A DNA stretch of 61,808 nt, the filler included. It is 4 parts of 4 records of this genome, joined end to end, with 100 filler letters (N's around TTAATTAATTAA, not from the genome) between each part and the next. Parts side by side here need not be neighbours in the genome. Positions count along the whole stretch, not along the records: positions 49,002 to 61,808 come from SRR31156797_751; 3 more parts are not named here. One strand, 5' to 3'. A program made the position numbers and the translations under genes. Numbering within the stretch: position 1 is the stretch's first letter; the number at the start of each line of letters is the position of its first letter. Below, piece after piece: positions 3,798-61,808 of this stretch. The notes beneath the pieces were generated by a model. It was not told the origin of the DNA and did not search any database. It was given only the letters and a program-made list of their open reading frames with translations.

Positions 3798-3983
3798 ATT
3801 GCCTAAGCAATTAAGTTTTGAATTAACAAATATACAAATCATATGTGAACTGCTATATCACACTCGAATAAATGACATTTTCCTTATTAACTTGAGTTTC
3901 ATATATGGTAATGTTTGTTTCACGATTAGTTTTGTTATTTTTGTTGTGTGATTTCATAACCTTGTCGAAAAAAGATACAACAA

Positions 3984-4640: not shown

Positions 4641-4645
4641 TATAA

Positions 4646-5146
4646 CTATTTAACTTTCCAAACTTTTCCATTATCCTTGCACTCTTGTAGCAGGGTAGTA
4701 ATTGTTTTACCTATTTTAGGGTGTTTGAATGTTGGCGCTAGCTCATGTATTGGTTCTAATACAAATCTTCTTTCATGCAGTCGTGGGTGGGGAACTTGAA
4801 GATTAGGTAAATCAATAATTTGTTCGTCATAGAATAAAATGTCAATATCTAAAATCCGGGCTTCATAGTAATCTTTAGTTTTTGCAATTCTGCCAGCGTT
4901 TTTCTCAATGTTTTGCAATATTTTTAGTAACTCAATCGGAAGAAGTTTTGTTTTAATTTGCAGCGCTTGATTCAAAAAGTTATTCGATTCAAAACCCCAC
5001 GCTTCTGAACCATAAAGGCTACTTTCATGAAGCACCAGGCCGCCATTTATTTCAATGCTTTGTTTAGCGAATTTCAGGTTAGCTTTTAGATCGCCAATGT
5101 TGGTTCCGGTCAAAAGTATCGCAATATGAGTGTTATCTTGTTGCAT
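4646..5146 (-). CDS. folK: 2-amino-4-hydroxy-6-hydroxymethyldihydropteridine diphosphokinase
   Basis: GTNIGD, FLNQA, RILDIDIL, PHPRLHERRFVLEP. Confidence 0.96.
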   Translation of the reverse strand: MQQDNTHIAILLTGTNIGDLKANLKFAKQSIEINGGLVLHESSLYGSEAWGFESNNFLNQALQIKTKLLPIELLKILQNIEKNAGRIAKTKDYYEARILDIDILFYDEQIIDLPNLQVPHPRLHERRFVLEPIHELAPTFKHPKIGKTITTLLQECKDNGKVWKVK

Positions 5147-41858: not shown

Positions 41859-41944
41859 CTAAAGGGAACCAGGGTTTCATGGAATGTTTGTTCCATGAAC
41901 CTCAGAATGAATTGAAAATACCATTGTTATTAAGGAGACAGGAT

Positions 41945-45466: not shown

Positions 45467-45479
45467 GGAGAAAAGAACA

Positions 45480-47231
45480 ATGGGAAAAGCAAAACTCGAT
45501 CCAATTCTCAGATCGGTGCTGGCCAATCGTTTCGATTCGGTTTGTAGTGAAATGGGAGAAACCATGATGCGGACCTCCCGATCGCCCATTTTCAGCGAGG
45601 CCCGGGATTTTGTCACCGGCATTTTCGACGCCAAAGGACAAATGATCGCCCAGAAACCGTATATCGCCGTTCTGGCCGGCGCCCTTCCCTTCTGTCTCAA
45701 AGCCGTCATGGAATATTATGGAAACGATATCCATGACGGCGATGTGATCGTCACCAACGACCCCTACCTTGGAGGGAACAATCACAAACCCGATTTCACC
45801 GTGCTGCGGCCCATTTTTAACGGCGACAGAATCGTTTTCTGGGCCGCCGCCAAGGGACACATGGCGGATACGGGCGCCACCGGCGCCTGCGGGTACAACC
45901 CCGAAGCCGGTTCCGTCTGGGAGGAGGGTCTGCGGATCCCCCCCGCAAAGCTCTACAAAAAGGGAGAATACCACCGAAGCGTGTGGAACATGATCCTGAA
46001 AAACGTGCGGATGGAATTTCTTGTGGATGGGGATCTGAACTGCCTTGTGGGGGCCACCCGGGTGGGAGAACGGAAGCTGCGACGTGGCATCGAAATGTAC
46101 GGGCAAAAAACCCTTGAACAGGCCGTGGATGAAATCGTTGCGGCCACGGAAAAGCACATGCGGGAGGAAATCTCTAAAATTCCCGACGGTGAATACACAG
46201 CTGAAAGGTTCATGGATCACGATGGGTTCGACCGTGACAAAATGGTGAAAATCAAGCTGAAAATCAAGGTTCACGGGGACAACGTTTGCTTCGACTTCAC
46301 CGGAAGCGATCCCCAGGTCCGGGGGTCCATCAACAGCACCCTGGCCAACACCTTCTCCAGCGTATGTCTCGCCCTGTTCATGACCATTGATCCCGATATA
46401 CGGAAAAACGAGGGTTCCTTAAAGCCCATTGATATCATTGCACCTGAAGGAACGGTAACAAACTGCGTGGAGCCCGCCGCATGCACCGCGTGCACCATCT
46501 GCGGAACCGCCACCATCGCCGAAACCATCTGGCTGGCACTGGCGCAGGCGGTTCCTAAAAGAGTCCAGGCAGCCTGGGCCAGATGGTCGGCCCCCGCCAC
46601 CATGGGATTGAATCCCCGAACCGGAAGATTGTTCGGGGACATTCATTTCATGTGCAAGGGCGGTGCCGGGGCCACCCTCGGGTTTGACGGCTGGGACCAT
46701 CTGGGCGTCATTTCCTGCGCCGGCGGGCTGAGATCCCCCGATCCCGAACTTCACGAACTGGTATGCCCCTACACGGTGCTTCAGTACGAGTATCTCACGG
46801 ACAGCGCGGGGCCCGGTAAATGGCGGGGGGGTATGGGAACCGCCTATCGTTTCAGTGTTGGAGGTGATGGCATTCTTTCGGACAACTTCGGCGACGGCCT
46901 GAAACCGGAAACAGCACCCTTCGGCATCGTGGGAGGAAAGGGACCCGGTCCCAGCAAACTGAATGTGAAGCGGGCCGACGGTTCTTCCGAGGATCCGGAT
47001 GTACACAAATTCGTCATGCTCAACAAGGGCGACATCTATGAAATCGACGAAACCGGCGGAGGAGGATACGGCAATCCTTTTGAACGTAAAACGAGCGCCG
47101 TTCTTGCGGATGTTTTGGATGAACTCGTTTCAATGGATCGTGCCAAAAAAGATTACGGCGTGGTCATTGATCCCAAAACCGTAACGGTGGATGAAGAAGC
47201 CACCAGGATTTTAAGGCAAGCGGCCCTGTAG
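45480..47231 (+). CDS. Hydantoinase B / oxoprolinase family subunit (HyuB/ApcD-like)
   Basis: EMG..M.RTSRSPIF.EARD, NDPYLGGNNHKPD, HMADTG, EGLRIPP, DFTGSDPQ, DSAGPGKWRGG, GGGGYGNP. Confidence 0.95.
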   Translation: MGKAKLDPILRSVLANRFDSVCSEMGETMMRTSRSPIFSEARDFVTGIFDAKGQMIAQKPYIAVLAGALPFCLKAVMEYYGNDIHDGDVIVTNDPYLGGNNHKPDFTVLRPIFNGDRIVFWAAAKGHMADTGATGACGYNPEAGSVWEEGLRIPPAKLYKKGEYHRSVWNMILKNVRMEFLVDGDLNCLVGATRVGERKLRRGIEMYGQKTLEQAVDEIVAATEKHMREEISKIPDGEYTAERFMDHDGFDRDKMVKIKLKIKVHGDNVCFDFTGSDPQVRGSINSTLANTFSSVCLALFMTIDPDIRKNEGSLKPIDIIAPEGTVTNCVEPAACTACTICGTATIAETIWLALAQAVPKRVQAAWARWSAPATMGLNPRTGRLFGDIHFMCKGGAGATLGFDGWDHLGVISCAGGLRSPDPELHELVCPYTVLQYEYLTDSAGPGKWRGGMGTAYRFSVGGDGILSDNFGDGLKPETAPFGIVGGKGPGPSKLNVKRADGSSEDPDVHKFVMLNKGDIYEIDETGGGGYGNPFERKTSAVLADVLDELVSMDRAKKDYGVVIDPKTVTVDEEATRILRQAAL

Positions 47232-47304: not shown

Positions 47305-48189
47305 ATGTTGTACAGAAAGCTATACCCTTTTGACTACCACGAGGCAGGCACGGTTTCGGAGGCCTCCGAGATCCTGGGATATCACGGCTTTAAAGCCTCG
47401 GTAATGGCGGGCGGCATCAGTCTGGTGGATCAGATGAAACGGAGACTCAAAAACCCCGAAGTCCTCGTCTCCATTCAACGGATCAGGGAACTCAGGTTCC
47501 TGGAACAGACGGAAGGGGGCGCACTCAGAATCGGGGCACTCTCAACCCTCGGGGACGCTGAAAGATCGACTCCTTTGAAAACGGGTTTCGGGCCACTCTG
47601 GGAGGCCATCAAACAGATCGGTTCGGCTCAGGTGAAAAACATGGGAACCATCGTGGGGAACGTTTCGGCGTGCAATCCCGCATCCGACGTGACCACGGCC
47701 CTGGCAGCCCTGGGCGCTGAAGCCGCAATTTCCGGCCGCAACGGCAAAAGGCACGTACCCGTGGAATCCGTCGCCGCTGACGTACGCAAAATCGGGCTTG
47801 CCCCGGACGAAATCATTACCGAAATCCGCGTGCCGCCCATGGGCGGTGAAGACTGCGGCGCCTTTCTGAACCTGGCACGTACCAAGGAGGATATCGCCAA
47901 AGTGGCGGTGGCGGTCAAGGCGGTGGTCCAGAACGGTCTGGTGACGGATGTTCGTCTCGCTTTGGGGGCCGTTGCGCCCGTTGTATTTCTGGCATCCAAT
48001 ATTCAGTCTATTCTGGAAGGGGAAAAGCCGTCCCTTGACCGTATCCGGGCCGCCGCACGGGCCGCCGCCGCCGATGAAGGGGTCAGTCCCATTACGGATA
48101 TCCGCTCCACATCTGAATACCGGCGTGAAATGATAACGGTTTTGACGGATCGGGCCTTGAGAAGAGCGCTTTCCGAATATTTAAATTAG
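47305..48189 (+). CDS. Xanthine dehydrogenase/CoxM family FAD-binding subunit
   Basis: AGGISL, IGALSTL, QVKNMGTIVGN....PASD, LALGAVAP, PITDIRSTSEYR. Confidence 0.93.
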   Translation: MLYRKLYPFDYHEAGTVSEASEILGYHGFKASVMAGGISLVDQMKRRLKNPEVLVSIQRIRELRFLEQTEGGALRIGALSTLGDAERSTPLKTGFGPLWEAIKQIGSAQVKNMGTIVGNVSACNPASDVTTALAALGAEAAISGRNGKRHVPVESVAADVRKIGLAPDEIITEIRVPPMGGEDCGAFLNLARTKEDIAKVAVAVKAVVQNGLVTDVRLALGAVAPVVFLASNIQSILEGEKPSLDRIRAAARAAAADEGVSPITDIRSTSEYRREMITVLTDRALRRALSEYLN

Positions 48190-48207
48190 GGGGGGGGGAG
48201 AAAAGCA

Positions 48208-48684
48208 ATGGGAAAGATGCAGGCGACATTTATTGTGAACAACGTTTCATACGATACCCTGGTGGATACCCATGCCCTGCTGGTGGAGGTCTTGAGAGAC
48301 GAGCTGGGCTACGGGTTCAAAGGGGTTCATGAAAGCTGCGGTTCCGGCGACTGCGGCGCATGCACCGTACTCCTGGACGGGCTCCCCATCCTCTCCTGCG
48401 TGACCCTGGCGGTGACGGTCAGGGATCGGGAGATTACCACCATCGAGGGGCTCGCAAAGGGCAACGAGCTTGATCCGCTGCAAAAATCCTTTATGGAAAA
48501 AGGGGCATTGCAATGCGGATACTGCACCCCGGGGATGATTCTGACCGCAAAAGGGCTGCTCAACGAGAATCCCAATCCCACGTCCCGGGAAATCAAGGAG
48601 GGCCTGGCAGGGAATCTCTGCAGATGCACCGGCTACAACAAGATTTTGGAGGCTGTCACCGATGCCGCAAAGGGAGGTGAATGA
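48208..48684 (+). CDS. Xanthine dehydrogenase/CoxS family 2x[2Fe-2S] subunit
   Basis: CGSGDCGACTV...SC and QCGYCTPG...GNLCRCTGY. Confidence 0.96.
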   Translation: MGKMQATFIVNNVSYDTLVDTHALLVEVLRDELGYGFKGVHESCGSGDCGACTVLLDGLPILSCVTLAVTVRDREITTIEGLAKGNELDPLQKSFMEKGALQCGYCTPGMILTAKGLLNENPNPTSREIKEGLAGNLCRCTGYNKILEAVTDAAKGGE

Positions 48685-49002: not shown

Positions 49003-49833
49003 GAAGACTGGTTCCAGGTTGAAAACTTTAAGAAATATATTGAGTTCTCAACCTGGAATAGGTTTGAACTGAGGGTAGAAAAAAATACCCTGGACATCCT
49101 GGACTTATTGGACACTTTTTCCTTTAAACCCAAAGCCACTTTTTTCATTCTGGGATGGATTGCCAAGAAATTACCCGGCCTTGTTAGAGAAATAAACGAC
49201 AGGGGGCATGAAGTCGCTTCCCACGGAGGGGACCATCATCTATGTACCAGCCTCAGTCCGAAAGATCTTTTAGTCGATTTAACCGATAGCCGAAAACAAC
49301 TTGAAGATATAATAGGTCAGGTTGTCCGGGGATACAGGGCACCGAGTTTTGCCCTTGATGACACTATTCTGGGATATATCAAGGAAGCCGGATATTTATA
49401 CGATTCCAGCTATAATTCATTTTCAGCCCATGGCCGGTATGGCACCATAGATTTAACCCGGGCAGTTAGAAAAAACGCCTTATATCAATTAGGCGATGGT
49501 TTTTATGAACTGCCTGTCAGTAATATTACCCTTGGAAAAAAAGTGCTGCCCTTTGGCGGCGGCGGTTATTTCAGATTATTTCCGTTTCCCTTTTTCAAAC
49601 AGGGTATGGCATCGATCCTTAAAAAAGAACAGGTTTTTGTATTTTATGCCCATCCCTGGGAGTTTGACCCTGATCAGCCCAGAGTGAACCAGGTTTCCCC
49701 AGGGTTTAAATTTAGACACTATGTGAATTTAAAAACAACAGGAATCAAAATGAAGAAGTTGATCAATTCCTTTTCCGGCTGTGATTTTATCAGCTGCAGG
49801 GATTATATAAGCTCGCTTCAGGCAAGTTTCTAA
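49003..49833 (+). CDS. XrtA/PEP-CTERM system polysaccharide deacetylase, 5' truncated
   Basis: Frame is open from the contig edge with EDWFQVENF; ATFFILGWIA, GHEVASHG, GYRAPSF, GGGYFRLFP, FYAHPWEFDPDQPR. Confidence 0.92.
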   Translation, partial: EDWFQVENFKKYIEFSTWNRFELRVEKNTLDILDLLDTFSFKPKATFFILGWIAKKLPGLVREINDRGHEVASHGGDHHLCTSLSPKDLLVDLTDSRKQLEDIIGQVVRGYRAPSFALDDTILGYIKEAGYLYDSSYNSFSAHGRYGTIDLTRAVRKNALYQLGDGFYELPVSNITLGKKVLPFGGGGYFRLFPFPFFKQGMASILKKEQVFVFYAHPWEFDPDQPRVNQVSPGFKFRHYVNLKTTGIKMKKLINSFSGCDFISCRDYISSLQASF

Positions 49834-49856
49834 CACATTTATTATCCTTTAAAAAA

Positions 49857-50888
49857 ATGACGATACAAATAAAAAAACTCGAAGATGCAGACCTTCTAAC
49901 CTGGGATGATTATGTTATAAACCATCCGGACGGAACCGTATTTCACTTGACCGCCTGGAAAAAAACCATTGAAAAAACATTCGGACACAAAAGCATTTAC
50001 CTGATAGCGGAAAATAATACTAAAGTATGCGGTGTTTTCCCTATTTTTGAAATTAAAAGCCTGCTATTCGGTCATTCGTTTATTTCCGTTCCATTCGCTG
50101 AAATCGGGGGGGTTTTAGCCGATAACCCGGAAATAGAAAAAGAACTGATTGGTAAAGGAACGGAAACCGCAGAATTAAAAAAATCACTTTACCTGGAGTT
50201 GAGAAACAAAACCCAAATAGAGGGGTTTAAGACCAAATCCCTCTATTATAATTTTAAAAAAGAGATTTTTCAGGATCATGACGAAAACCTTATGGCCATT
50301 CCCCGGAAATCCAGAGCCATGGTGCGAAATGCCGTTAAAAAAGGGTTAACTTCAGAAACAGGCCACCACCTGTTGAATGATTTTTATACGATACTGGCGT
50401 TGAATTACCACAGGCTGGGCACTCCGATTTTTCCTAAAAAACTGTTTAAAAATTTTTTGTCCGAATATGGTCAAAAAGCCAATATACTGGTTGTTCGAAC
50501 CAAAGAAGGAAAACTTGCAGCAGCGGTTTTGTTTTTTATATTCAAAGACCAGATGGTGCCCTATTATGCAGGCTCCGATTTTTCCTTCAGACGGCTTGGT
50601 CCCAATGATTATATGTACTGGGAGCTTATGAAGCTTGCGGTTGAAAACAAATGCAGGTTTTTTGACTACGGCAGAAGCAAAGAAGGAACCGGTTCTTTCA
50701 GTTTTAAAAAACACTGGGGATTTAAACCATCCCCCCTGGCTTACCAATACCACCTTGTAAAAGCCCCTGAGATTCCCAATCTGAGCCCTGCCAATCCCAA
50801 ATACCGGAAAAAAATTGAGCTCTGGCAAAAAATGCCCCATTCCCTTACAAAAATTATCGGTCCGGTGATTGCCAGGAATTTAGGATGA
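49857..50888 (+). CDS. FemAB-related protein, PEP-CTERM/XrtA system-associated
   Basis: WDDYV..HP.GT.FH..AW, SLLFG...ISVPF, RLGTP, FDYGRSK.GTGS..FKKHWGF, LSPANPKY. Confidence 0.92.
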   Translation: MTIQIKKLEDADLLTWDDYVINHPDGTVFHLTAWKKTIEKTFGHKSIYLIAENNTKVCGVFPIFEIKSLLFGHSFISVPFAEIGGVLADNPEIEKELIGKGTETAELKKSLYLELRNKTQIEGFKTKSLYYNFKKEIFQDHDENLMAIPRKSRAMVRNAVKKGLTSETGHHLLNDFYTILALNYHRLGTPIFPKKLFKNFLSEYGQKANILVVRTKEGKLAAAVLFFIFKDQMVPYYAGSDFSFRRLGPNDYMYWELMKLAVENKCRFFDYGRSKEGTGSFSFKKHWGFKPSPLAYQYHLVKAPEIPNLSPANPKYRKKIELWQKMPHSLTKIIGPVIARNLG

Positions 50889-52090
50889 AAAAAAAGATAC
50901 TCTATCTTTGCCACCGGATTCCCTACCCGCCCAACAAAGGGGATAAGATAAGGTCTTTTAACCAGATAAAATACCTGTCAAAAGAGCATACCATTGACCT
51001 GATTACCCTTGCAGACGATCCCGGCGACCTGAAGTATGAGAAAGAGCTGAAAAATTACTGCAGGCAGGTCTCAGTCTTTCAGCTGAATACCAAACTAGGG
51101 AAAATCAAAGGTCTGATAAGCCTTTTATGCGGCAAAAGCATATCCCAGGGGTATTTTTATTCAAGAAAATTTCAAACCATATATGACCGGTGGACATCAC
51201 GGGAAAAATACCAAACCGTGATCTGCTTTTCATCTCCAATGGCCGAATATATATTTCGCTCAAAGAAAAACCGGCACCAGGATGCTGATACTTTTATCAT
51301 GGATTTTTGTGACCTGGATTCGGATAAATGGAAGCAGTACGCAGGAAAAACATCTTTTCCCTTCAATTTTCTATATGGAGCAGAGGCCAGGCGGTTATTG
51401 AATTTTGAAATAAAAATAAATAAAAGATTTAACCGGTCGGTTTTTATTTCCGGGAAAGAGGCCGACCTGTTTAAAGCGTATTACGCTGAAGCAGACAATA
51501 TATCCATCACTCCCAATGGGGTAGACCACGGCTATTTTGATCCGGAAAAGATAAAACTATCACAGGTATTCCCTTCTCCCATGATTGCCTTTTACGGCGC
51601 CATGGACTACTACGCAAATATAGACGGGGTTACCTGGTTTGCAAAAAAAATTTTACCCCTGGTAAAGAAAGCATTTCCCGATATCAGGTTCTATATCGTG
51701 GGGAGCAACCCTGCCCCGGCCGTAAAAGAACTCGGGAAGGACCCGGCCATCCATGTCACAGGATTTGTGGATGATATCAGGGAATATTACAGGGCAGCGG
51801 ATGTATGTGTCATCCCCCTTCGTATCGCCAGGGGGATTCAGAATAAGGTTTTAGAGGCGCTTTCCATGGAAAAGCCTGTGGTGGCAACCTCATCGGCACT
51901 CCAGGGTATACACCCCAAAGTCCGGGAAGTCCTGAATATAAAAGATGATCCCGAGGGGTTTGCAGAGCAGATAGTCCGCCTTCTTGGGAGTAAATCCACA
52001 GCAAAAGAGCAGGGCCGGGCCGCAAGGCAGTTCATATTAAGTCATTACGACTGGGTCAACAACCTTCATGGCTTGTCTGCTTTGATCTGA
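50885..52090 (+). CDS. GT4 sugar transferase, PEP-CTERM/XrtA system-associated
   Basis: HRIPYPPNKGDKIRS, DFCDLDSDKW.QY, GAMDYYANIDG, PLRIARGIQNKVLEA. Confidence 0.93.
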   Translation: MKKKILYLCHRIPYPPNKGDKIRSFNQIKYLSKEHTIDLITLADDPGDLKYEKELKNYCRQVSVFQLNTKLGKIKGLISLLCGKSISQGYFYSRKFQTIYDRWTSREKYQTVICFSSPMAEYIFRSKKNRHQDADTFIMDFCDLDSDKWKQYAGKTSFPFNFLYGAEARRLLNFEIKINKRFNRSVFISGKEADLFKAYYAEADNISITPNGVDHGYFDPEKIKLSQVFPSPMIAFYGAMDYYANIDGVTWFAKKILPLVKKAFPDIRFYIVGSNPAPAVKELGKDPAIHVTGFVDDIREYYRAADVCVIPLRIARGIQNKVLEALSMEKPVVATSSALQGIHPKVREVLNIKDDPEGFAEQIVRLLGSKSTAKEQGRAARQFILSHYDWVNNLHGLSALI

Positions 52091-52103
52091 GTTCTAAATA
52101 CAG

Positions 52104-54449
52104 ATGAATAGAAAAATATTTATCATCATACTTTTTTTACTGGGTGCAGCCTTTTTTACCGGTTATAAATTCATGGCGTCCCAGACGGCATCGCCAAAAC
52201 TTGTGGTTTCAAAAATTTTTGAAAAAGCAGGCCTTGGAAAGCAGCTGGAAAAGGTTGAGCTTTTATTGTTTAAAGAAAAATATTCAGACTATATATTCCA
52301 GGGAACCTTTAAGCGATCCCACCCAAAAATTCTTTATAAAAGCAGATCGGAAATAAAGATGATCCGGAATCGCTATAATACCGATCCGGAATATCAAAAA
52401 ACGGTTGATATTTATTCCAAAGGTGCGGCTGCATGGTTTTGTAAGCGGGATGAGGTGCAGGGTGAGATGGCCATAAATAAACTGCTGGATGCAGACATTG
52501 GTCTTCCTAAAGCCCAGGGCAACCACGGCAACATAATATCTTTGGTCCTTCAGTATGAGCTGCTCAACGATCATCCGGCCTGGACCCCGGATAAAAAACA
52601 GATCATTGAAAAAAAATTTAAACAATACCTTGATCATGCCCTGAAAATCCTGAACGCAGACTCTGCATCTCTCTGGCACGGCCGTTTCCAGCTTGCCTGT
52701 ACCGCCTGGATCACTGCCTCGGCCATTGATTTTGACGGTAAAGATAATTTTGACATGATTTCAAAAGCCCAGGCCCATTTCCTTGATGCCGTTGACGCCA
52801 TCAGCCTGACCCAGGGATGGCCGGAAGGTTACAACTACTGGATCAACAACCGGGCCTACCCCTTTGCCCTGGCCTGCCTGAGCCACTTAAACTCCGTCGA
52901 TGACGCCCCGGCACTAAATACTAAAATTGTCAAAGCACTCGAAACCGCAGGCATATGGACCATATACGGTACTCGGCCCGATCACAGGTTTGCCCTGTTC
53001 GGTGATTCCGGCCCCCGGAATGACCTGAAAGATGAAACCCAAAGATTTATCGACCTTGTACTTTTAGGAACCCGAAATACCCTATTTAAATATTATTCAG
53101 CCTATCTCAACACATCCAAAAAACAAGGGTATTACTATGGATACCGTTGGGGCATTCCGGTTTTCAGGGGACTTTCACAGCTTGATTTTCCCAAACGCCT
53201 TAAGCTGGATGATTTATCCTTTGCAGACGGGATTCTACCGGGCAGCCGGCTATTCGGGCCGGATGGTTTCAACCAGATATTCATACGATCCGGTTGGGAT
53301 GATAATGCCACCTTTATTTCTTTTCGCGCAGGGCACACCTTTTCTCACCACGGGCATTACCAGGCCGGCCATTTCACCTTATTCAAGTATGCCCCGCTGG
53401 CAATAACTTCCGGCACATACGGCGGATACACCTCCCCCCACCGCCTCAATTATTACATCAGGACCATTGCTTCCAATTCCATACTTATCCAGAAACCCGG
53501 GGAAATTATTCAGCCCAATCACTACTTTAAGGAAAATGTGGCTGCCGGCGGCCAGAAGATCATTATTCCCACGGGAAGCACCATTACCAGTGTCAAAAAC
53601 TGGAAAGAAAAAAAGGTCTACCAGGGAGGCATCATTACGGCATTTGAGAATACCAACCCGGATTATGTCTATATCAACACCAACCTGACAAATGCCTATT
53701 CTCAAAAAAAAGCAGCCAGGGTAACCCGGGAATTATGTTATTTAAATACGGAAGATCTGCTCATCATCCATGATGTGGTGGAATCTGTCAAAAAAGAATA
53801 TGGAAAAAAATGGCTTTTCCATACCTGGACCAAGCCTTTTACCCGGACCGAAAAACAACTTGCGGGAACCCCTGAAAATGGCATTATGACTTCTTCGGAT
53901 ACCATTGTAAACCTGTCCCATCTTAAGGGCCGTGCCCGGTTATCCGTAATGCTGCCCCGGCATCCTCTCATTTATAAAATCGGCGGAAAGGATTATCGGT
54001 ATTATGTGGAAACAGATGGTGAGGATGCTGTTTTAAACGGCATCAACATGGCGGACGGCGCCAATGAAAAACCCTGGTTTGATTCAGGTATGTGGCGCCT
54101 TGAAATCACTTCAGGCAAAGAGAATAAAAAAGATGAATTTCTGGTTGTTGTACAACCGGGAATATCCGGGGCTCCCCTAAAGCAGAAATATGATACCCTG
54201 TCTTCCTCCTCTCTTTGCGGAATAGCCACAAACCATAATGTCATCTTATTTCCCAAAAGAGAGAAATCCGTTTTCAGAATTCAAACCCCTGCGAACAAAA
54301 ATCATATCATATTCGGCCTGCCTGAAAATAAAATCGCATCTGTTATCATTAATCAGAAAACCATTGAAAAAAAGGTAAACCGGAACGGGGTACTGGAATT
54401 CAACAGCATGCCCGGTAACGGACAGGCGAGCATCGATATTAAAATTTAA
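52104..54449 (+). CDS. Heparinase II/III-like polysaccharide lyase, membrane-anchored or exported
   Basis: N-terminal TM; WPEGYNYW, FIRSGW, HHGHYQAGHFTLFK, NYYIRTIASNSIL, C-terminal beta-sandwich. Confidence 0.72.
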   Translation: MNRKIFIIILFLLGAAFFTGYKFMASQTASPKLVVSKIFEKAGLGKQLEKVELLLFKEKYSDYIFQGTFKRSHPKILYKSRSEIKMIRNRYNTDPEYQKTVDIYSKGAAAWFCKRDEVQGEMAINKLLDADIGLPKAQGNHGNIISLVLQYELLNDHPAWTPDKKQIIEKKFKQYLDHALKILNADSASLWHGRFQLACTAWITASAIDFDGKDNFDMISKAQAHFLDAVDAISLTQGWPEGYNYWINNRAYPFALACLSHLNSVDDAPALNTKIVKALETAGIWTIYGTRPDHRFALFGDSGPRNDLKDETQRFIDLVLLGTRNTLFKYYSAYLNTSKKQGYYYGYRWGIPVFRGLSQLDFPKRLKLDDLSFADGILPGSRLFGPDGFNQIFIRSGWDDNATFISFRAGHTFSHHGHYQAGHFTLFKYAPLAITSGTYGGYTSPHRLNYYIRTIASNSILIQKPGEIIQPNHYFKENVAAGGQKIIIPTGSTITSVKNWKEKKVYQGGIITAFENTNPDYVYINTNLTNAYSQKKAARVTRELCYLNTEDLLIIHDVVESVKKEYGKKWLFHTWTKPFTRTEKQLAGTPENGIMTSSDTIVNLSHLKGRARLSVMLPRHPLIYKIGGKDYRYYVETDGEDAVLNGINMADGANEKPWFDSGMWRLEITSGKENKKDEFLVVVQPGISGAPLKQKYDTLSSSSLCGIATNHNVILFPKREKSVFRIQTPANKNHIIFGLPENKIASVIINQKTIEKKVNRNGVLEFNSMPGNGQASIDIKI

Positions 54450-55667
54450 ATGAGAAAAAACATGAAAATCCTTCATATATTAGACCACAGCCTTCCCCTT
54501 CACAGTGGATATACGTTCAGGAGCCAGAACCTTTTTATAGCCCAGCAGAAAATGGGGTATGAAACCATAGTGTTAACCTCTCCCAAGCATGAAGAAAGCC
54601 TGAAAAAAGTTACGCCGGCCTGTGAAACCCTCGGCAGTATCAAATATTATAGAACAGGCCCCTCACCCCAATACCCGGTTCCGGTGGTATCTGAATTGTT
54701 GCTGATGCATATACTGTATAAGCGCATTATGGAAGTTGCCCGCATAGAACGGCCGGAGGTCATTCATGCCCATTCCCCCATTCTCAATGCCGTACCGGCA
54801 ATCCGGGCATCCAAAAAATTGAATATTCCCGTGGTATATGAAATCAGGGCGTTCTGGGAGGATGCTGCCGTGGATCACGGTACCTATGCTGAACACTCCT
54901 GGAAGTATAATCTGACCAGGAATATAGAAACATGGGTATCTAGAAAGGTTGATCATGTCGGTATTCTGTGCAAGGGCTTAAAAAACGACCTGATCAGCCG
55001 GTCTATTGCCCCGGAAAAGATAACGGTGGTATACAACGGCATCAATCCCGAAGACCTGAAACCCGCTCCGCCGGATAAAGAATACTTTGATGCCTGGGGA
55101 CTGAAAGGGAAAAAGGTAATCGGTTTTGTGGGGTCTTTTTACAGGTATGAAGGACTTGACCTTTTGATAGAAGCATTTGCCAGGCTGGCCAAAAAACGGG
55201 ACAATACCGCTCTGCTGCTGGTCGGCGGCGGAGAAATGGAGGAAGAGTTAAAGGCGCTTGCCGCAAAACTGAATATCCAAGACCGGCTGATTATGCCCGG
55301 CAGGGTTCCCCACGAAAGAATCGCAGGTGTCTACTCAATGATCAATATCCTGGCATATCCGCGGTATTCCATGCGGTTGACGGAATTGGTCACCCCTCTC
55401 AAACCCCTTGAAGCCATGGCTATGGAAAAAGCGCTTGTGGCCAGCGATGTCGGCGGCCACAAAGAACTGGTAACAGATAATAAAACCGGTCTTTTATTCC
55501 GGGCGGGAGATTCAGACCATTTAGCACAGCAGATTTGCGAAATCCTGGACAATGAAAATTTGGAAAAATCATTGCAGGAATCCGGATCTTGCTGGGTTAA
55601 AAAGTATCATACCTGGGAAACGACAACCTCCGTTTACCGGTCCATGTATAAATCTTTAAAAAAATAA
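54450..55667 (+). CDS. GT4 glycosyltransferase, PEP-CTERM/exosortase A-associated
   Basis: HILDHSLPLHSGYTFR, HAHSP.LN, YEIRAFWEDAAVDHG, GSFYRYEGL, RLTELVTPLKPLEAMA. Confidence 0.93.
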   Translation: MRKNMKILHILDHSLPLHSGYTFRSQNLFIAQQKMGYETIVLTSPKHEESLKKVTPACETLGSIKYYRTGPSPQYPVPVVSELLLMHILYKRIMEVARIERPEVIHAHSPILNAVPAIRASKKLNIPVVYEIRAFWEDAAVDHGTYAEHSWKYNLTRNIETWVSRKVDHVGILCKGLKNDLISRSIAPEKITVVYNGINPEDLKPAPPDKEYFDAWGLKGKKVIGFVGSFYRYEGLDLLIEAFARLAKKRDNTALLLVGGGEMEEELKALAAKLNIQDRLIMPGRVPHERIAGVYSMINILAYPRYSMRLTELVTPLKPLEAMAMEKALVASDVGGHKELVTDNKTGLLFRAGDSDHLAQQICEILDNENLEKSLQESGSCWVKKYHTWETTTSVYRSMYKSLKK

Positions 55668-55679
55668 AAGGGAGCAGAC

Positions 55680-56513
55680 ATGGAAGAGACAGAATATATA
55701 TCAGGCATGCTGGACAGGACACTTAGGTGTTTCAGTAGAGAAGATGTGGATAAGGTGCGCAATACCGTTTTTGCCATATCCGGCCTTGGGGGGGTGGGCG
55801 CCATAACAGCAGAGCTGCTGGCCAGGTGGGGGGTAAAGCGATTCCGTCTCCTGGATATGGATGTCTATGACGAATCAAATCTCAACCGCCAGTTGTTCTC
55901 CACCTCCAGGACGATCGGGCGAAGCAAAGTGGATGTTGCAGAAGAGCGTATAAAAGAGATCAATCCCTATGCTGAAGTGGAAATAAAAATAGCTGATCGC
56001 GTTGATAACGACAATGTCCATAAGTTTGTCAAAGATGCAGGCATGGTGATACAAAATGCAGATCACCCGTCCTGCAAACTGTTCTATCTTGCGGCCCGCA
56101 AGCATAAAGTTCCTTTGGTCAACGGTTATGCAACCGTCACCGGTGGCCGGGTTCAAGCCTTTGATTATAAAAATTCTGAATGCAAAAGCATGCTTGAAGG
56201 ATTATGGAACCGGATAAAATACAAAGATGCCAAACCCCTGGACCAGATGTCCACAGAAGAAATCCGTCAATTTGACAAAGAAAATGTTCATCCCACAGCA
56301 CCGTCTTTGAATTTTGTAACCAATCTTGTCGGATGCTGTATTGTTGCAGAAGCCATAAAGCTGGTTACCGGAAAAGGCAGACCGGTTTTATATCCGAAAT
56401 ACTATTACTTTGATACTTTTAAGAATAAATCCGGTATCCGAAATTCGAACTCTTTCATCAATCCTGACAATATAAAAAGAGTATTTTTTATTTTAAGAAA
56501 AGCTTCTTTTTAA
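55680..56513 (+). CDS. ThiF/MoeB/HesA family adenylyltransferase
   Basis: GLGGVG, DMDVYDESNLNRQ, GRSKVD...RIKEINP; no CxxC zinc pairs. Confidence 0.88.
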   Translation: MEETEYISGMLDRTLRCFSREDVDKVRNTVFAISGLGGVGAITAELLARWGVKRFRLLDMDVYDESNLNRQLFSTSRTIGRSKVDVAEERIKEINPYAEVEIKIADRVDNDNVHKFVKDAGMVIQNADHPSCKLFYLAARKHKVPLVNGYATVTGGRVQAFDYKNSECKSMLEGLWNRIKYKDAKPLDQMSTEEIRQFDKENVHPTAPSLNFVTNLVGCCIVAEAIKLVTGKGRPVLYPKYYYFDTFKNKSGIRNSNSFINPDNIKRVFFILRKASF

Positions 56514-58316
56514 ATGAATTTAGGAGAAATACATTTGCCATCCTTCCGTGATTTCAAAAATAAAAATTTAAAAAGTGATGTCTGGTACCGTTGCGATGTT
56601 ATTTTTGGAATATGTGGAACCGAATGGCCTGTAGAAAAAGAGCTTCAAATCCTTCGATTAAAAAATGATCTGTTTCCTGATTTGGAATGGAACTTATATA
56701 AAACCAAGAAATTAATGTTGATATATGCTTCTTGTATAGATGCTAAATATGAAGCAGCAAGTCAAACAATGGATGGTATTTTTTTTCGGGTATCAAAAAA
56801 TAATACCGGCGATAATCAAATCAATACGTTTAAAGGAGCATACTCTGCGATTAGTGTTTATTCAAATGGAAATATAGAATTAAACAGAGACAGAGCTGGT
56901 GCATACAAAATATTTTATCATCAGGCTAAAAACCATGTTGAATTTAGCTCAAATATGCTTTTTTTTAATAAAAGAGGTTTTTCGATCTGTCATCGTGCGT
57001 TAGCTTCATTTTTTAGATATCTTTATATTTCGGCTCCATTGACAGTATATGAGGATGTTAAATCGATTGAACCAAACAAAAATATAATACTCAACCCGAA
57101 AAAAATAGTAAAACAGCTATATTCTCAAAACCATCGTGGTTTGATCAAAAGAGCAGAACTATCTGACGATAGGATAGATACAAAACTAAATGAATTTGAA
57201 GGTTTGTTGGCCACATCAATACAGAATAGATTAAAGTTTTCGCATCATCCTATTCTTCTTTTAAGTGGTGGTAAGGATTCTTCTTCGATCGCATTAGCCG
57301 CAAAGCATTCCGGAATACAGAATTTATGCGCAATAACAATCGGTTTTGATATCGACTCCATTGATGAGTCAGAACTCTCTGTATTTCTCTGCAAACACCT
57401 CCAAATAAAGCACGAAGTTATAAAACCCAAACCATCAGAGTATGTGAATTTTTGGAAAGCATATATTCAAAATATGGGGCAACCCTGGGGTGATCCAGCA
57501 GGATTGCCATTGTTTATTGCTTTTAGGCTCTTTTCCGGTAAGGCTAATTTGTTTCTCGACGGGACCGGTAATGATTCATACTTTGGTATACCAACATCTA
57601 AAATGGAAGAAGTGATATGGAATATTAATAAAACAGCTCCTAATTTTTTAAGAAACAGGATTGGTAATTTAACTAAAAATAAGTCTAAAACGTTAGACTA
57701 TTTTATTACAAAAATGAAAAGGGGCAAAGAAGAACAATTCATATCATGGAGGGGGTGGGATCCAAAACAAATAAGAAAAATATTCAAAGCAAGCAAGGTT
57801 TATGATTCTTCTCCTTTCAAGCGGACTTACATGAATTCTTCAAATGCCCGTGAGCTAAAAACGAACACATTGTGTGGGATTTGGGAACCTGAAGCGGCCT
57901 ACCAAAAAACAATACAATCAGCAACATCCAGTCAGATCTCTATGGCATTCCCTTTTAGAGACATAGACCTAGAAAATTTTATAAGGGGGTTAAGCCAAAA
58001 AGATAGAATCCACAATAGAACAAACAAGATGATTGTTCGTTCATACATGAAAAAATACCTACCGCCAGAAATTGTAAACAAACCCAAAGGGTCATTTATT
58101 TTTCCGAAAGCGATCATTCTAAGAAGCAATAGACACGAGTTATTGCGTGAACTTCTGTCTAAGGCAGATGAAATAGCAAAATTTGAAGGTTTAGATTTTA
58201 AACCCATAAAAAAAATAGTATTACGTTATATTTTTGGAGACGACTCTTTAGAAGACCGTGTTTGGGCGATTGCGATATTCATTGAATGGTATAAATTTGA
58301 CAAAGAGAAAATATAG
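56514..58316 (+). CDS. Asparagine-synthase-like ATP pyrophosphatase with degenerate N-terminal domain
   Basis: RDRAGAYKIFY, PP-loop LLSGGKDSS, DGTGND, FPFRD, KPKGSF; no N-terminal Cys. Confidence 0.8.
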   Translation: MNLGEIHLPSFRDFKNKNLKSDVWYRCDVIFGICGTEWPVEKELQILRLKNDLFPDLEWNLYKTKKLMLIYASCIDAKYEAASQTMDGIFFRVSKNNTGDNQINTFKGAYSAISVYSNGNIELNRDRAGAYKIFYHQAKNHVEFSSNMLFFNKRGFSICHRALASFFRYLYISAPLTVYEDVKSIEPNKNIILNPKKIVKQLYSQNHRGLIKRAELSDDRIDTKLNEFEGLLATSIQNRLKFSHHPILLLSGGKDSSSIALAAKHSGIQNLCAITIGFDIDSIDESELSVFLCKHLQIKHEVIKPKPSEYVNFWKAYIQNMGQPWGDPAGLPLFIAFRLFSGKANLFLDGTGNDSYFGIPTSKMEEVIWNINKTAPNFLRNRIGNLTKNKSKTLDYFITKMKRGKEEQFISWRGWDPKQIRKIFKASKVYDSSPFKRTYMNSSNARELKTNTLCGIWEPEAAYQKTIQSATSSQISMAFPFRDIDLENFIRGLSQKDRIHNRTNKMIVRSYMKKYLPPEIVNKPKGSFIFPKAIILRSNRHELLRELLSKADEIAKFEGLDFKPIKKIVLRYIFGDDSLEDRVWAIAIFIEWYKFDKEKI

Positions 58317-58346
58317 CATCTAATTTACGATTGATTGTAAGCCAAT

Positions 58347-58955
58347 ATGAAAGTTTCATACTTTTTCAAAAGAATCGGGAAAAAAATAAACAAAATTATT
58401 TTTTTAAGAACAATAGGATTAACTGCACCGAATACAGTTATAATTAATGGAAAACCGATAATTGATATTCGAAATGGAGGAAGAGTTAAGCTTGGAAATA
58501 ATGTTACTCTCAATTCTAAAAATAAAGGGTACCATTTAAACATGCACTCACCTGTTAAAATTTACGTAGATAGGCCGGGAGCAATAGTAAAAATTGGAGA
58601 CAATACGCGTATACATGGAACTTGCATACACGCGTATAATTCTATCAGCATAGGGAAAAATGTATTAATTGCGGCAAATTGTCAAATATTCGATGGTAGC
58701 GGTCATTCTTTGAGTTTTAACGATGTCAACAATAGAATAAATACAATCGGCAAATCTAAATCAATTACTATTTCGGATTCTGTTTGGATCGGGACAAATT
58801 CCATTATATTGCCTGGTGTGCATATTGGAATGGGCAGCGTCATTGCAGCAGGGTCTGTTGTAAATACTGATATCCCAGAAATGGTTTTAGCTGGGGGAGT
58901 ACCGGCTAAAGTGATTAAAAGCGCAAAACAAATACATTCACAAAAAAAGTGCTGA
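58347..58955 (+). CDS. Hexapeptide-repeat (LbH) acyltransferase
   Basis: ISIGKNVLIAANCQIFD, VWIGTNSIILPGVHIG.GSVIAAGSVV, GGVPAKVIK. Confidence 0.92.
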   Translation: MKVSYFFKRIGKKINKIIFLRTIGLTAPNTVIINGKPIIDIRNGGRVKLGNNVTLNSKNKGYHLNMHSPVKIYVDRPGAIVKIGDNTRIHGTCIHAYNSISIGKNVLIAANCQIFDGSGHSLSFNDVNNRINTIGKSKSITISDSVWIGTNSIILPGVHIGMGSVIAAGSVVNTDIPEMVLAGGVPAKVIKSAKQIHSQKKC

Positions 58956-59000
58956 AATTTAATTTTTTTTAAATTTATATAGTTATCGCTTGAATAAAAA

Positions 59001-60191
59001 ATGAAAAATACTGAAAAGAACCCGTTAAATGAAACAGAGGGGCGGAATCCACAAAAGCGAATAAACAGAATTCGGATTTGTGTTGTTTCTTTAAAATATC
59101 CGCCAGAATATAGTGGTGCCGGATTACAAGCCCAGAGACTTTTTCAAAAAATGAAACAGAAAGGGGGGCAGTATTTTGTTATCACAGCCTCTGGTTCAGG
59201 ATATCAAAAAAATAGCAAGGATGATGGAGAAGATATTGTTAAGATAAAGGGGACCCCTGGGTCATGGACGTCATTGAGCTTATTGTTATTCTGGTGGAAA
59301 CTGTTTGTTTTATTATTCCAGAAGCGACGTGATTATGATTTTGTTTATATCGTTAGTGCCAACTTACCTTTAAGTATTTTGGGATTATATTCACGAGTGC
59401 TTGGCAAGAAATCAATCGTCAAGCTTACCTTAGCTAAAAGCGATATTGCTGATGTCGGAAATGGTTTTTGGGGAAAACTTCAAGGTTTTTTCTTAAATTT
59501 TATTGATCGCTATGTTGCAATTTCCGATGAGATATATTCTGAACTTTGTAATTGCGGGTTTCCCAAGGAAAAAATTCTTTTATTACCTAATGGTGTAGAT
59601 TGTAGTGTTTTTTCACCTCGTAAAAAAAACATAGATAATAACTCTGTACCCAAATTGCTGTTTGTTGGTATTCTCGACAAGAGAAAAGGGGTTGATATCC
59701 TTTTAGAGGCATGGCTTGACTTAAAGAAACAAAAGAATCCGCAGGTACAAGGGGAATTGGTAATGGTTGGTCCATATGATAAATCCAGTTCCGTTTTATC
59801 GACTTTTGATATGAATGAACTTAAAAAGAATTCAGTCTGTTTTTTAGGGGAAAGAAGTGACATCAACCTAATAATGAAAGAGTGCGATATTTTTGTTTTG
59901 CCATCTTCAAATGAAGGGCTACCCAATGTTGCCTTAGAAGCCATGGCTTCAGGATTACCGATAATTATATCTAATTCGTCTGGAGGGGCTGACTGCGTTA
60001 CTCATAATACCAACGGCTTAATTTTTGAGATGAAAAACAAAACCCAATTAATGAATTTCATAAAAAAATTGCTGTGTGATGGGTCTATGAGAAGAAAAAT
60101 GGGCTATGAAAGCAGAGTACGGGCATTGAAAAGCTTTTCAATCGATCAGGTTGTGGACAGGTATTTTGAAATTCTAAGTGAGCTCAAATAA
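59001..60191 (+). CDS. GT4 glycosyltransferase
   Basis: LPNGVD, FVG.L..RKG, FVLPSSNEGLPNVALEAMASGLP. Confidence 0.92.
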   Translation: MKNTEKNPLNETEGRNPQKRINRIRICVVSLKYPPEYSGAGLQAQRLFQKMKQKGGQYFVITASGSGYQKNSKDDGEDIVKIKGTPGSWTSLSLLLFWWKLFVLLFQKRRDYDFVYIVSANLPLSILGLYSRVLGKKSIVKLTLAKSDIADVGNGFWGKLQGFFLNFIDRYVAISDEIYSELCNCGFPKEKILLLPNGVDCSVFSPRKKNIDNNSVPKLLFVGILDKRKGVDILLEAWLDLKKQKNPQVQGELVMVGPYDKSSSVLSTFDMNELKKNSVCFLGERSDINLIMKECDIFVLPSSNEGLPNVALEAMASGLPIIISNSSGGADCVTHNTNGLIFEMKNKTQLMNFIKKLLCDGSMRRKMGYESRVRALKSFSIDQVVDRYFEILSELK

Positions 60192-61429
60192 TGAGATCTC
60201 AATTATTAAAAGTGCCTATGGGACAAATTGATTGGGGTATTAAAGATATTTTCGACTATTTGATATTAAAAACCTTCCAGAAAAATAAATTTAAGGACCA
60301 GCTAAATACGAAATTTTCTCTCTTTTATGATAAAGATCTGCGTTTTGTTTTTCTAGAGTTAGGACGGCAAGCTATATATTTATCGCTTAAAAGTTTGGAG
60401 TTGAAAAGCAGTGATGAGGTAATTATTCCTTCCTATGCATGCGCAAATGTTCTTCTACCTATACTTGCCAACAATTACACACCTGTCTTTGCAGATTGTG
60501 GAAAGGATTTGAATATCAGTTTAGAGAGTGTTCGATCAGCCATAAATGCGAAAACAAAGGTGTTAATTATTCCTCATATGTACGGAAACATGGCGTCAAT
60601 ATCAGAATTTAGAGAGCTTGCGAATCAGCATAACTTAGTCCTGATTGATGATGCGGCCCAAGCGTTTGGAGCCTCTCTTGGCAATAATTTTGCCGGATCT
60701 TTTGGTGATTATGGGATTCTAAGTTTTGGACCTTTTAAAAGTCTCCCGGCGTCAAAAGGCGGAATATTATTATCAACGAGCCATGAGCTTTATCCATCAA
60801 CAATGGAGGCATCGCAGATTTTGCCGGAGAGGGGAATGACCAAATCCCTTGATATAACAGTAAAATGTTTTATAAAATTTGGATTGCGAAAAGCATTCTT
60901 CTTATTGCGTCAAATGAAAAAAAACAAATTGGATCGTCTGCCCTTTGACGGTCAAGAACAAAAGCGGACTCCTAATTTTTTAAATTTTCATGAGATGCAC
61001 CCAAGGAAAATGTCAGAATTAGATAGTTTCATCATAAACCGGTTGCTTGAAAAGGCAGAGGATCGAATTCGGCGAAGAAGGAAATTGGCCAAATTATTAA
61101 TAAGCTACTTAGAAAAAAGTTCTGCCCATTTTAGTCTACCCGATTTTGTTAAGACAAATATATTTACAAAATTTATCATTATCCTTAAAGAAAGCGTTTC
61201 TGAGGAAAAACGAGATTTATTTATAGACTATCTTAATCATAGCGGCATTGAAAGCTATGGGGGGTATAAACCCTTACATCTGCAGGAACGATTCACAGCA
61301 TTTACCAACAACCGTTTAAAGTATACAGAAAGTGTATGGAGAAGGGTTGTCTGCTTACCACTTAGCGCAAAAATGAAAAATGATGATATTGTCTTAGTTA
61401 AAAATGTTATCAATAATTTTCAATGGTGA
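60191..61429 (+). CDS. DegT/DnrJ/EryC1/StrS family PLP aminotransferase
   Basis: GRQAIYL, DEVIIPSY.C, PHMYG, IDDAAQA.G, SFGPFKSL (PLP lysine), LCLPL-type tail. Confidence 0.88.
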   Translation: MRSQLLKVPMGQIDWGIKDIFDYLILKTFQKNKFKDQLNTKFSLFYDKDLRFVFLELGRQAIYLSLKSLELKSSDEVIIPSYACANVLLPILANNYTPVFADCGKDLNISLESVRSAINAKTKVLIIPHMYGNMASISEFRELANQHNLVLIDDAAQAFGASLGNNFAGSFGDYGILSFGPFKSLPASKGGILLSTSHELYPSTMEASQILPERGMTKSLDITVKCFIKFGLRKAFFLLRQMKKNKLDRLPFDGQEQKRTPNFLNFHEMHPRKMSELDSFIINRLLEKAEDRIRRRRKLAKLLISYLEKSSAHFSLPDFVKTNIFTKFIIILKESVSEEKRDLFIDYLNHSGIESYGGYKPLHLQERFTAFTNNRLKYTESVWRRVVCLPLSAKMKNDDIVLVKNVINNFQW

Positions 61430-61442
61430 ATATGGGGGGAGT

Positions 61443-61808
61443 ATGGCACGAAAAGAAAATATGGTAAAATTAATATGTATTCTATTTTGGGTTTTGATAC
61501 CGAATAGTTCTTTACCAGCCAGTGATAATATTCCTTGGAGCAGCAGGCATTTTCCCAATGCGCCAAGGATTTCAGCAGAACAGGCCCTTAGTCTTAAAAA
61601 CGCCGGTCAAAAAATGGTAATCATTGATGTGCCTTGGTCACAGCAAGGCTTTAAAAAATCACATATTTGCGGGGCAATCCCAATGAGGATTGATGTAAAG
61701 AAGATGGACCGGTTGATAAAAAAAATACCAAAAGATTATATTATTTTATCGTATTGAAAATGACCAAGTGAAGAAAATAGCGCCCGTGTGGTTGCTAGAG
61801 CTTTAATG
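61443..61808 (+). CDS. Exported rhodanese-like protein, probable selenoprotein with UxU active site; continues past the window end
   Basis: GGGGGAG RBS, signal-peptide-like N-terminus, PRISAEQA...IIDV...HICGAI...IPKD.II.Y-TGA-K-TGA-PSEENSARVV. Confidence 0.8.
61778..61797 (+). promoter_or_regulatory. Candidate bacterial SECIS hairpin
   Basis: TAGC-GCC-[CGTGT]-GG-TT-GCTA: 7-bp stem with a bulged U and G at loop position 2; loop starts 21 nt after the second TGA. Confidence 0.55.

Follow-up and report, generated by a model that had tools for sequence, protein, structure and literature searches.

A candidate rhodanese selenoprotein with two in-frame UGA codons and one SECIS-like hairpin in an exopolysaccharide locus

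Does a gene that runs into two TGA codons, separated by a single codon, end there, or is it read on as a protein with two selenocysteine (Sec) residues? This question is raised by a rhodanese-like gene at the 3′ end of a 61,808-nucleotide (nt) stretch of DNA (the whole stretch that was analysed, referred to as the window). With translation table 11, the open reading frame (ORF) call for this gene ends at 61757. If TGA is read through, the frame that begins with ATG at 61443 codes for 122 residues, with zero further stops up to the window end. Positions 61752-61808 of the plus strand read TAT TGA AAA TGA CCA AGT GAA GAA AAT AGC GCC CGT GTG GTT GCT AGA GCT TTA ATG, so that the loop of the protein becomes ...I-I-L-S-Y-TGA-K-TGA-P-S-E-E-N-S-A-R-V-V-A-R-A-L-M, up to 61808. 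The open Y-TGA-K-TGA frame had already been noticed in a sequence-only reading of this DNA, and our analysis confirmed it. From comparisons of sequences, we consider it probable, at roughly 0.87, that this is a genuine gene in which both UGA codons are decoded, mostly as Sec. The parts of the gene are as follows.

61443..61808, plus strand: 5′ part of the candidate rhodanese selenoprotein gene, 122 of about 160-166 codons as judged from orthologue lengths, cut by the window end
61755..61757, plus strand: first in-frame UGA (codon 105), where rhodaneses carry their canonical catalytic cysteine (Cys)
61761..61763, plus strand: second in-frame UGA (codon 107), in the column that is Sec in the known CxU (LYCAU) family
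61434..61441, plus strand: purine-rich Shine-Dalgarno-like run GGGGGGAG, read from the sequence just 5′ of ATG 61443
61443..61520, plus strand: probable signal peptide or N-terminal membrane helix, from the layout of the sequence, which is the same in 15 of 15 relatives

The start was assigned to ATG 61443 and not to ATG 61404, because the GGGGGGAG run precedes the former and the latter overlaps the upstream gene. In the predicted export region, a basic N-terminal end is followed by a hydrophobic core and then by LPA/SD. The rhodanese is thus probably exported via a signal peptide or held by an N-terminal membrane helix.

Relatives of this protein are present in databases as hypothetical proteins of about 100 residues, all of them truncated. 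Of 20 candidates from a word-index search, 15 were relatives at E ≤ 0.001, with lengths of 101-112 amino acids (aa) and zero full-length sequences among them. Aligned to the window protein, eight of these gene calls end with ..SY and seven with ..SYCK. An exhaustive profile search returned 105 proteins at E ≤ 0.001, among which 13 end at ..Y and 18 at ..YCx, that is, at the same two columns. Some C-terminal pieces have been annotated as separate mini-ORFs (P0021, P0057 and P0067 in the profile search). The expectation that gene callers truncate or split such a gene is therefore borne out, with truncation in 15 of 15 relatives.

Full-length orthologues were identified at the nucleotide level in two records, L001, a locus of the Desulfobacteraceae metagenome-assembled genome G001, and L002, a metagenome contig. 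In both, T-A-Y is followed by TGA AAA TGA CCN and then by 55 codons up to a TAA stop, which gives proteins of 160 aa (L001) and 166 aa (L002). The identity among L001, L002 and the window fragment is 49-53%. In the 15 codons 3′ of the second TGA, comparison of the window with L001 showed 8 identical codons, 5 synonymous and 2 non-synonymous changes; with L002, 9 codons were identical, 5 changes were synonymous and 1 was non-synonymous. Over the 55 codons, L001 and L002 differ with a non-synonymous rate (dN) of 0.43 and a synonymous rate (dS) of 3.2, resulting in a dN/dS of about 0.13. The region 3′ of the TGA codons is under purifying selection.

The subfamily of the window is rare, since an orthologue was found in only 1 of 161 genomes of the family of G001 (E ≤ 1e-12) and, among 401 sampled genomes of its order, a strong match was obtained in G001 only (next best E 1.8e-9). 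A scan of genome contigs yielded one relative among 69 pattern matches, and a metagenome scan at least one among the 592 pattern matches listed. Neither the word-index nor the exhaustive profile search of proteins gave a Cys-only member of this subfamily.

An assembly error had been named beforehand as a possible source of the two TGA codons. We compared window positions 61300-61808 with a Logan contig of run X1 and observed 0 differences at a k-mer depth of about 35; run X1 is probably the window's own sample, so this is a second assembly and not an independent sample. The contig keeps both TGA codons, and because of its identity over this region a slip of the assembly at these positions is unlikely. 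A second contig of the same run (depth 92.8 compared to 35.4) shows 3 differences from the window across the 51 nt from 61758 to 61808 and reads ...L-A-Y-TGT at the first column. A C-K-U variant therefore exists alongside the U-K-U form in one sample. Both the window and the Logan contig break at 61808, and the near-identical 51-nt region of the selenocysteine insertion sequence (SECIS) in the C-K-U variant probably caused this break.

To place the TGA codons within the rhodanese family, the 105 proteins of the profile search and the 15 relatives were re-aligned to the profile, which resulted in 156 domain rows, not counting the two query orthologues; 110 of the 156 carry letters in both columns and are informative. 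Cys occupies the first column in 106 of these 110 rows, and in 50 rows it stands in both columns. The Y-C-x-C-P-x-E-x-x-S-A-R motif named in the sequence-only reading is thus real and marks a large Cys subfamily. Also, its placement of the TGA codons proved exact, as homologues carry CxC or CxU at precisely these columns. In canonical rhodanese loops of the type C-R-S-G-N-R-S, the catalytic Cys aligns to the first column. Because of this alignment, and because the central strand ends there in the structural model described below, the first TGA can be assigned to the canonical catalytic position. The second column, at +2, is the Sec position of the catalogued CxU family.

The spread of the double TGA was assessed by a six-frame search of the 401 genomes, 31 of which matched at E ≤ 0.001. 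The motif table that resulted lists 28 copies of the gene, and the window, L001 and L002 are among them. Left out of this table were four loci without an in-frame TGA (L024, L029, L034 and L036), matches without a locus, and L038 and L041, which have one TGA each and in which the motif pattern did not match C/U-x-U. Among the 28 copies, 19 are C-x-U and 9 are U-x-U, and every one of them has TGA in the second column. Beyond the window, L001 and L002, which carry U-K-U, TGA-x-TGA is also found in six rhodanese genes of other genomes: U-P-U with PSEEDS in L015-L017, U-P-U and U-Q-U with GPGEG in L020 and L030, and U-A-U in L033. L014 (C-P-U) is otherwise almost the same as L017 (U-P-U), and the hairpin is common to both. 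Since these two genes share their hairpin, and since the TGT variant from the source sample is near-identical to the window, an exchange between Cys and Sec at the first column needs no new RNA element.

Some of these loci show further features. L027 and L039 each carry two CxU rhodanese genes (C-A-U and C-D-U) about 450 nt apart, and each copy has a hairpin of its own. The U-A-U rhodanese of L033, which is of an LYCAU-like type, adjoins a gene for a multihaem cytochrome. In L015 (1468-1965), TGA is read through twice (U-P-U) and a true TGA stop follows 58 codons on; this stop overlaps the ATG of a DegT-like gene (ATGA), which suggests translational coupling.

The readthrough product was then compared with known folds. 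With Cys in place of Sec, the Pfam family Rhodanese (PF00581) scored 21.3 bits for the window and 18.2 and 18.3 bits for the full-length orthologues. Among NCBIfam models, NF041203 (rhodanese_LYCAU, rhodanese-related (seleno)protein) matches best, with 40.9 bits for the window and 30.1 and 37.5 bits for the full-length orthologues. As these scores are below the curated cut-off of 115 bits, the protein is related to the NF041203 equivalog but falls outside it. The L001 orthologue was modelled with AlphaFold2 from a 35-row alignment, with Cys replacing Sec; the model shows a complete alpha/beta domain of rhodanese fold with a mean predicted local distance difference test score (pLDDT) of 92.0. 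Residues 3-19 form a separate N-terminal helix. Strand 98-103 ends at the first Sec position, and a helix starts at residue 109, six residues on. A Foldseek search of this model gave 77 matches in the PDB at E ≤ 0.001, the best being rhodanese-like BH2092 (3nhv, E 1e-7); next come YgaP, Cdc25B, Acr2-type and further entries with a rhodanese fold. Completion of the fold beyond the window end had been proposed as a check on the gene, and the frames of L001 and L002 do complete it (pLDDT 92; Foldseek E 1e-7 to BH2092). The gene product would therefore be a small single-domain rhodanese, presumably exported, with the loop Sec-Lys-Sec-Pro-Ser-Glu.

Decoding of UGA as Sec in bacteria involves a SECIS element 3′ of the codon. 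The following elements were found in the window.

61778..61797, plus strand: SECIS-like upper stem-loop, predicted by RNAfold, kept in L001 and L002 and with covariation across the family
61769-61773 with 61801-61805, plus strand: possible lower stem, weak, seen in the window, similar in L002 and not in L001

In the structure given by RNAfold, 61778-61782 are paired to 61793-61797 and 61784-61785 to 61790-61791, so that five base pairs (bp) are followed by a C/U mismatch, two more bp and a GUGU loop at 61786-61789. A 54-nt stretch of the window has a minimum free energy (MFE) of -10.2 kcal/mol, and 6 of 200 shuffled sequences fold as well. The sequence-only reading had drawn a bulged-U hairpin at 61778-61797; the hairpin itself is recovered, but the bulged-U form, in which the loop starts at 61785, is 0.9 kcal/mol weaker than the mismatch form (-5.6 vs -6.5 kcal/mol). 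In the mismatch form the loop lies 28 nt from the first UGA and 22 nt from the second; in the bulged-U form these distances are 27 and 21 nt. In the consensus model quoted by a 2026 review, bacterial SECIS elements have a loop of 3-9 nt, a stem of 4-16 bp, a G in the first two loop positions, a spacing of 16-37 nt and an MFE ≤ -7.5 (PMC13188914). The window hairpin lies within these values, with a loop of 4-5 nt, G in the first or second position, 7 bp, both spacings and -10.2 kcal/mol; the comparison was made with these published values.

The hairpin is found at the same place in 28 of 28 copies, and its loop starts 21-22 nt 3′ of the second UGA. Its 5-bp core has the consensus G-Y-G-C-C / G-G-C-R-C and overlaps the Ser-Ala-Arg codons. 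In the gap-free alignment, 90% of the cells allow core pairing, and shifting the 3′ arm by 1-3 columns lowers this to 25-62%. Among distinct rows, one core pair is U-A in 11, C-G in 7 and U-G in 3, changes on both sides were observed in three of the five core pairs, and the covariation score was reached by 0 of 500 shuffles. We regard this covariation as supportive and not conclusive, because the shuffle control ignores relatedness and because codons constrain the sequence. The subfamily of the window has a longer stem with a mismatch or a bulged U. Covariation within it concerns three sequences, with pair 61782/61793 being G-U in the window, U-A in L001 and A-U in L002. A second hairpin for the two UGA codons was not seen. 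Rfam returned no family at gathering score anywhere in the window, and the L001 hairpin gave only a meaningless match with an E of 5.8, so that none of the Rfam models fits this SECIS. We infer that a single hairpin could serve both UGA codons, and this is made likelier by the fact that C-x-U and U-x-U sister genes share the same RNA.

Among the 16 long window ORFs, 6 end with TGA as an ordinary stop, the directly upstream gene being one of them, and TGA is therefore not generally recoded. The genome of L001, G001, contains the machinery for Sec, with scores of 76.6 bits for tRNA-Sec, 357.9 for selB, 592.6 for selA and 361.8 for selD, all above the cut-offs. The selD gene of G001 (G001:C3:3946825-3947745; L012) has one in-frame TGA itself and thus codes for a Sec-containing SelD. 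Other selenoprotein genes were also sought in the window: at 14 places a TGA has long open flanks, and the two longest of these, which were read, look like non-coding or antisense frames.

Taken together, the two-Sec UxU reading is supported by the TGA codons of the orthologues, by selection, by the Cys columns and by the SECIS-like hairpin. In the mechanism that we propose, SelB loaded with Sec-tRNA(Sec) would bind the single hairpin and decode both UGA codons, which are 6 nt apart and both spaced within 16-37 nt. The first Sec, at the end of the central strand, might hold the sulfur or selenium atom during transfer, and the second, at +2, might resolve the adduct via a Se-Se bond, giving a redox or transfer cycle of the CxC type. 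The protein would act outside the cytoplasm, within a Wzx/Wzy-type exopolysaccharide module.

Several observations weigh against this interpretation. The window copy is cut off at codon 122, and its 3′ end is taken from the orthologues. All PF00581 scores fall just under the gathering threshold of 22.2. The genes selA, selB, selC and selD were shown in the relative G001 only. The L001 hairpin has a z-score of +0.69 (153 of 200 shuffles fold as well) and the L002 hairpin one of -1.16 (25 of 200); since their stability is unremarkable, the case for a SECIS element rests on position and covariation. Additionally, the hairpin overlaps conserved Ser-Ala-Arg-Val codons, which are themselves a source of sequence conservation. 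In E. coli fdhF, the spacing between UGA and SECIS is reported to be tight. Finally, the chemistry given to the first and to the second Sec, like the export signal, is something that we only infer.

The alternative that survives best, although we consider it improbable, is that the second UGA codes for Sec and the first is mainly read as Cys or Trp by a near-cognate tRNA, or mostly terminates translation, so that the mature protein is largely C/W-x-U or scarce. The strict spacing between UGA and SECIS that is reported for E. coli speaks for it, and the hairpin stands at the distance of the second UGA in 19 of 19 CxU copies. UxU, moreover, arose by a single base change with the hairpin unmoved. 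On the other hand, at least four divergent groups carry UxU (U-K-U, U-P-U with PSEEDS, U-P/Q-U with GPGEG, and U-A-U), and U-K-U is kept across orthologues of about 50% identity. This recurrence and persistence argue that the first UGA is functional. Also, both spacings are within the 16-37 nt consensus given in PMC13188914.

Somewhat less probable still is that the first TGA is a true stop. The product would then be a decaying or naturally short protein of 104 residues, with the downstream frame as a relic. This would fit with the fact that all gene callers end the protein at the TGA columns, and with the thermodynamic weakness of the hairpin. However, three orthologues of about 50% identity keep both TGA codons and an open frame that is under selection (dN/dS about 0.13), and according to the model a 104-residue product lacks the catalytic loop and two helices and strands. 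In addition, the TGA codons fall on the two most conserved Cys columns, and sister genes differ just by TGC or TGT versus TGA. A miscalled TGC or TGT, or a genetic code of type 4/25 in which TGA is an ordinary amino acid, can practically be dismissed: the window does end at a contig break, but the second assembly agrees at every base of 61300-61808 at a depth of about 35, the same codons occur in orthologues from other records, and 6 of 16 long window ORFs stop at TGA. Both UGA codons being decoded, mostly as Sec, thus remains the reading that we prefer.

The genes around the rhodanese belong to an exopolysaccharide locus.

49108..61429, plus strand: XrtA/PEP-CTERM-type exopolysaccharide locus, with marker families above curated cut-offs
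60191..61429, plus strand: DegT/DnrJ/EryC1-like aminotransferase gene with an ordinary TGA stop, immediately 5′ of the rhodanese gene in the window as well as in L001 and L002

The order of the genes is deacetylase, FemAB-like, stp1 glycosyltransferase (GT), heparinase-like, stp3 GT, ThiF-like adenylyltransferase, AsnB-like amidotransferase, acetyltransferase of the hexapeptide type, GT4 and DegT-like. Within 49857-55667, TIGR03019 scored 396.9 (cut-off 260.35), TIGR03087 440.4 (316.65) and TIGR04063 543.8 (442.05), while the deacetylase family TIGR03006 remained under its cut-off with 224.1 compared to 276.2. L002 is syntenic with the window for stp1, stp3, the ThiF-like gene (65% identity) and the DegT-like gene. 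On the 3′ side of the rhodanese gene, both L001 and L002 carry genes for a Wzx-type flippase, other membrane proteins, a GT4 and a deacetylase-like protein. Because the flippase, GT4 and deacetylase-like genes come next, the rhodanese gene lies inside the exopolysaccharide locus. The exopolysaccharide context seen beforehand therefore stands on three marker families above their cut-offs, but the gene is not merely behind the cluster.

In the two other rhodanese groups, of the PSEE/GPGEG types, the neighbours are a Wzy_C protein, a DegT-like gene and/or a flippase of the same clade. All 8 fetched loci of the three groups, which are about 30-37% identical to each other, have the flippase clade and/or a DegT-like gene next to the rhodanese, compared to 0 of 23 loci of other rhodaneses (flanks of roughly 1.5 kb). 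The flippase gave matches at E ≤ 1e-60 in 12 of the 401 genomes, 8 of them with ≥ 45% identity. Of these eight genomes, seven have the rhodanese and six have it in the same locus; in G267, the Sec-rhodanese is on a contig other than that of the flippase. No rhodanese was seen in G103, where the contig is 3 kb long, and likewise none in the four genomes with a more distant flippase. In L048 (G396), the flippase match contains three in-frame TGA codons and the DegT-like match is in two pieces, which may reflect a decaying module or a poor assembly beside an apparently intact U-P-U rhodanese.

Whether the putatively exported C/U-x-U rhodanese is a fixed part of one Wzx/Wzy-type polysaccharide module in Desulfobacterales-like bacteria seems doubtful to us. 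If it were, a selenium-dependent step would take place on the outward-facing side of the membrane during exopolysaccharide assembly. The lipid-linked repeat unit might undergo a redox step there, for example, or a sugar substituent that bears sulfur or selenium might be handled. As judged by titles and the starts of abstracts, we found no publication that ties such a selenoprotein to exopolysaccharide loci.

Some neighbouring genes were inspected as well. The ThiF/MoeB-like adenylyltransferase (55680-56513, plus strand; counterpart in L002 at 3830-4657) lies between the stp3 GT and the AsnB-like/DegT-like genes. A MoeZ-like sulfur relay between the ThiF-like protein (55680-56513) and the rhodanese was considered and set aside, since the rhodanese is apparently exported and L001 has no ThiF-like gene within 6 kb. 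The gene at 52104-54449 (plus strand) of the exopolysaccharide locus codes for 781 aa with zero Pfam matches at 1e-5 and has a partial match to HepB (heparin/heparin-sulfate lyase) of 121.8 bits compared to a cut-off of 600. Elsewhere in the window, an ORF of 460 aa with Cys-rich stretches (41879-43261, plus strand) has zero Pfam families at 1e-5. Downstream of it are hydantoinase A/B genes (43352-47231) and genes for xanthine-dehydrogenase-like FAD and 2Fe-2S subunits (47305-48684).

For annotation, the locus provides a well-supported case for correcting truncated hypothetical calls of about 100 residues. Mechanistically, it is a natural example of one bacterial SECIS that apparently serves two UGA codons 6 nt apart, and the switch from Cys to Sec at the canonical catalytic position amounts to one base change. 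The CxU and UxU pair that co-occurs in one sample is useful for asking what the second Sec adds. Placement in a polysaccharide module gives a testable context for a selenoprotein family that is otherwise without a function.

Among known systems, the Cys-x-Cys rhodaneses with the loop Y-C-x-C-P-x-E-E-x-S-A-R, such as P0022, P0038 and P0040, are alike in fold and loop length. They carry Cys and not Sec, and are 19-33% identical to the orthologue. BH2092 (PDB 3nhv, 3o3w) is the best structural match, but its loop is C-W-G-P-A-C and not C-x-C. In the CxU family NF041203, the C and U of the motif align with the two TGA codons, and the U codon has the same hairpin behind it at an equal distance. The window protein differs from this family in having Sec and not Cys at the first position, in its loop (K-U-PSEENS compared to A-U-PNE) and in its polysaccharide neighbours. 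TsoB, a selenoprotein resembling a rhodanese/DsbD fusion (NF045694; form 5, UxxxxU, 2 Sec), also has two closely spaced Sec residues in a protein with a rhodanese domain (PMC13188914). By its description there, TsoB is a fusion protein and its motif is UxxxxU, in contrast to UxU.

In reviews of 2022 and 2026, the CxU form is included (COG0607 form 2; form 3, NF041203, 1 Sec), and a UxU rhodanese was not found in the text and tables available from them. Nevertheless, the UxU rhodanese is a kind that is already known, because a UxU rhodanese-related sulfurtransferase selenoprotein was reported in 2007 from deltaproteobacterial Olavius symbionts (Zhang & Gladyshev 2007, Nucleic Acids Res 35:4952, PMC1976440). 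The sequence-only reading had called UxU an unusual motif; it is not an unreported one, as that paper describes it for this selenoprotein family. The feature by which UxU was defined there, two Sec codons one codon apart in the active-site loop, is present in the window, L001 and L002. Like the form described in PMC1976440, the protein has a rhodanese domain in which a second Sec evolved beside a known one, and it is a prediction from sequence. Unlike that account, as far as its available description allows a comparison, the present analysis gives the genomic context, a predicted export signal and the link to polysaccharide genes. The new element is therefore a modest one, a divergent and presumably exported subfamily linked to a Wzx-flippase/DegT-like polysaccharide module.

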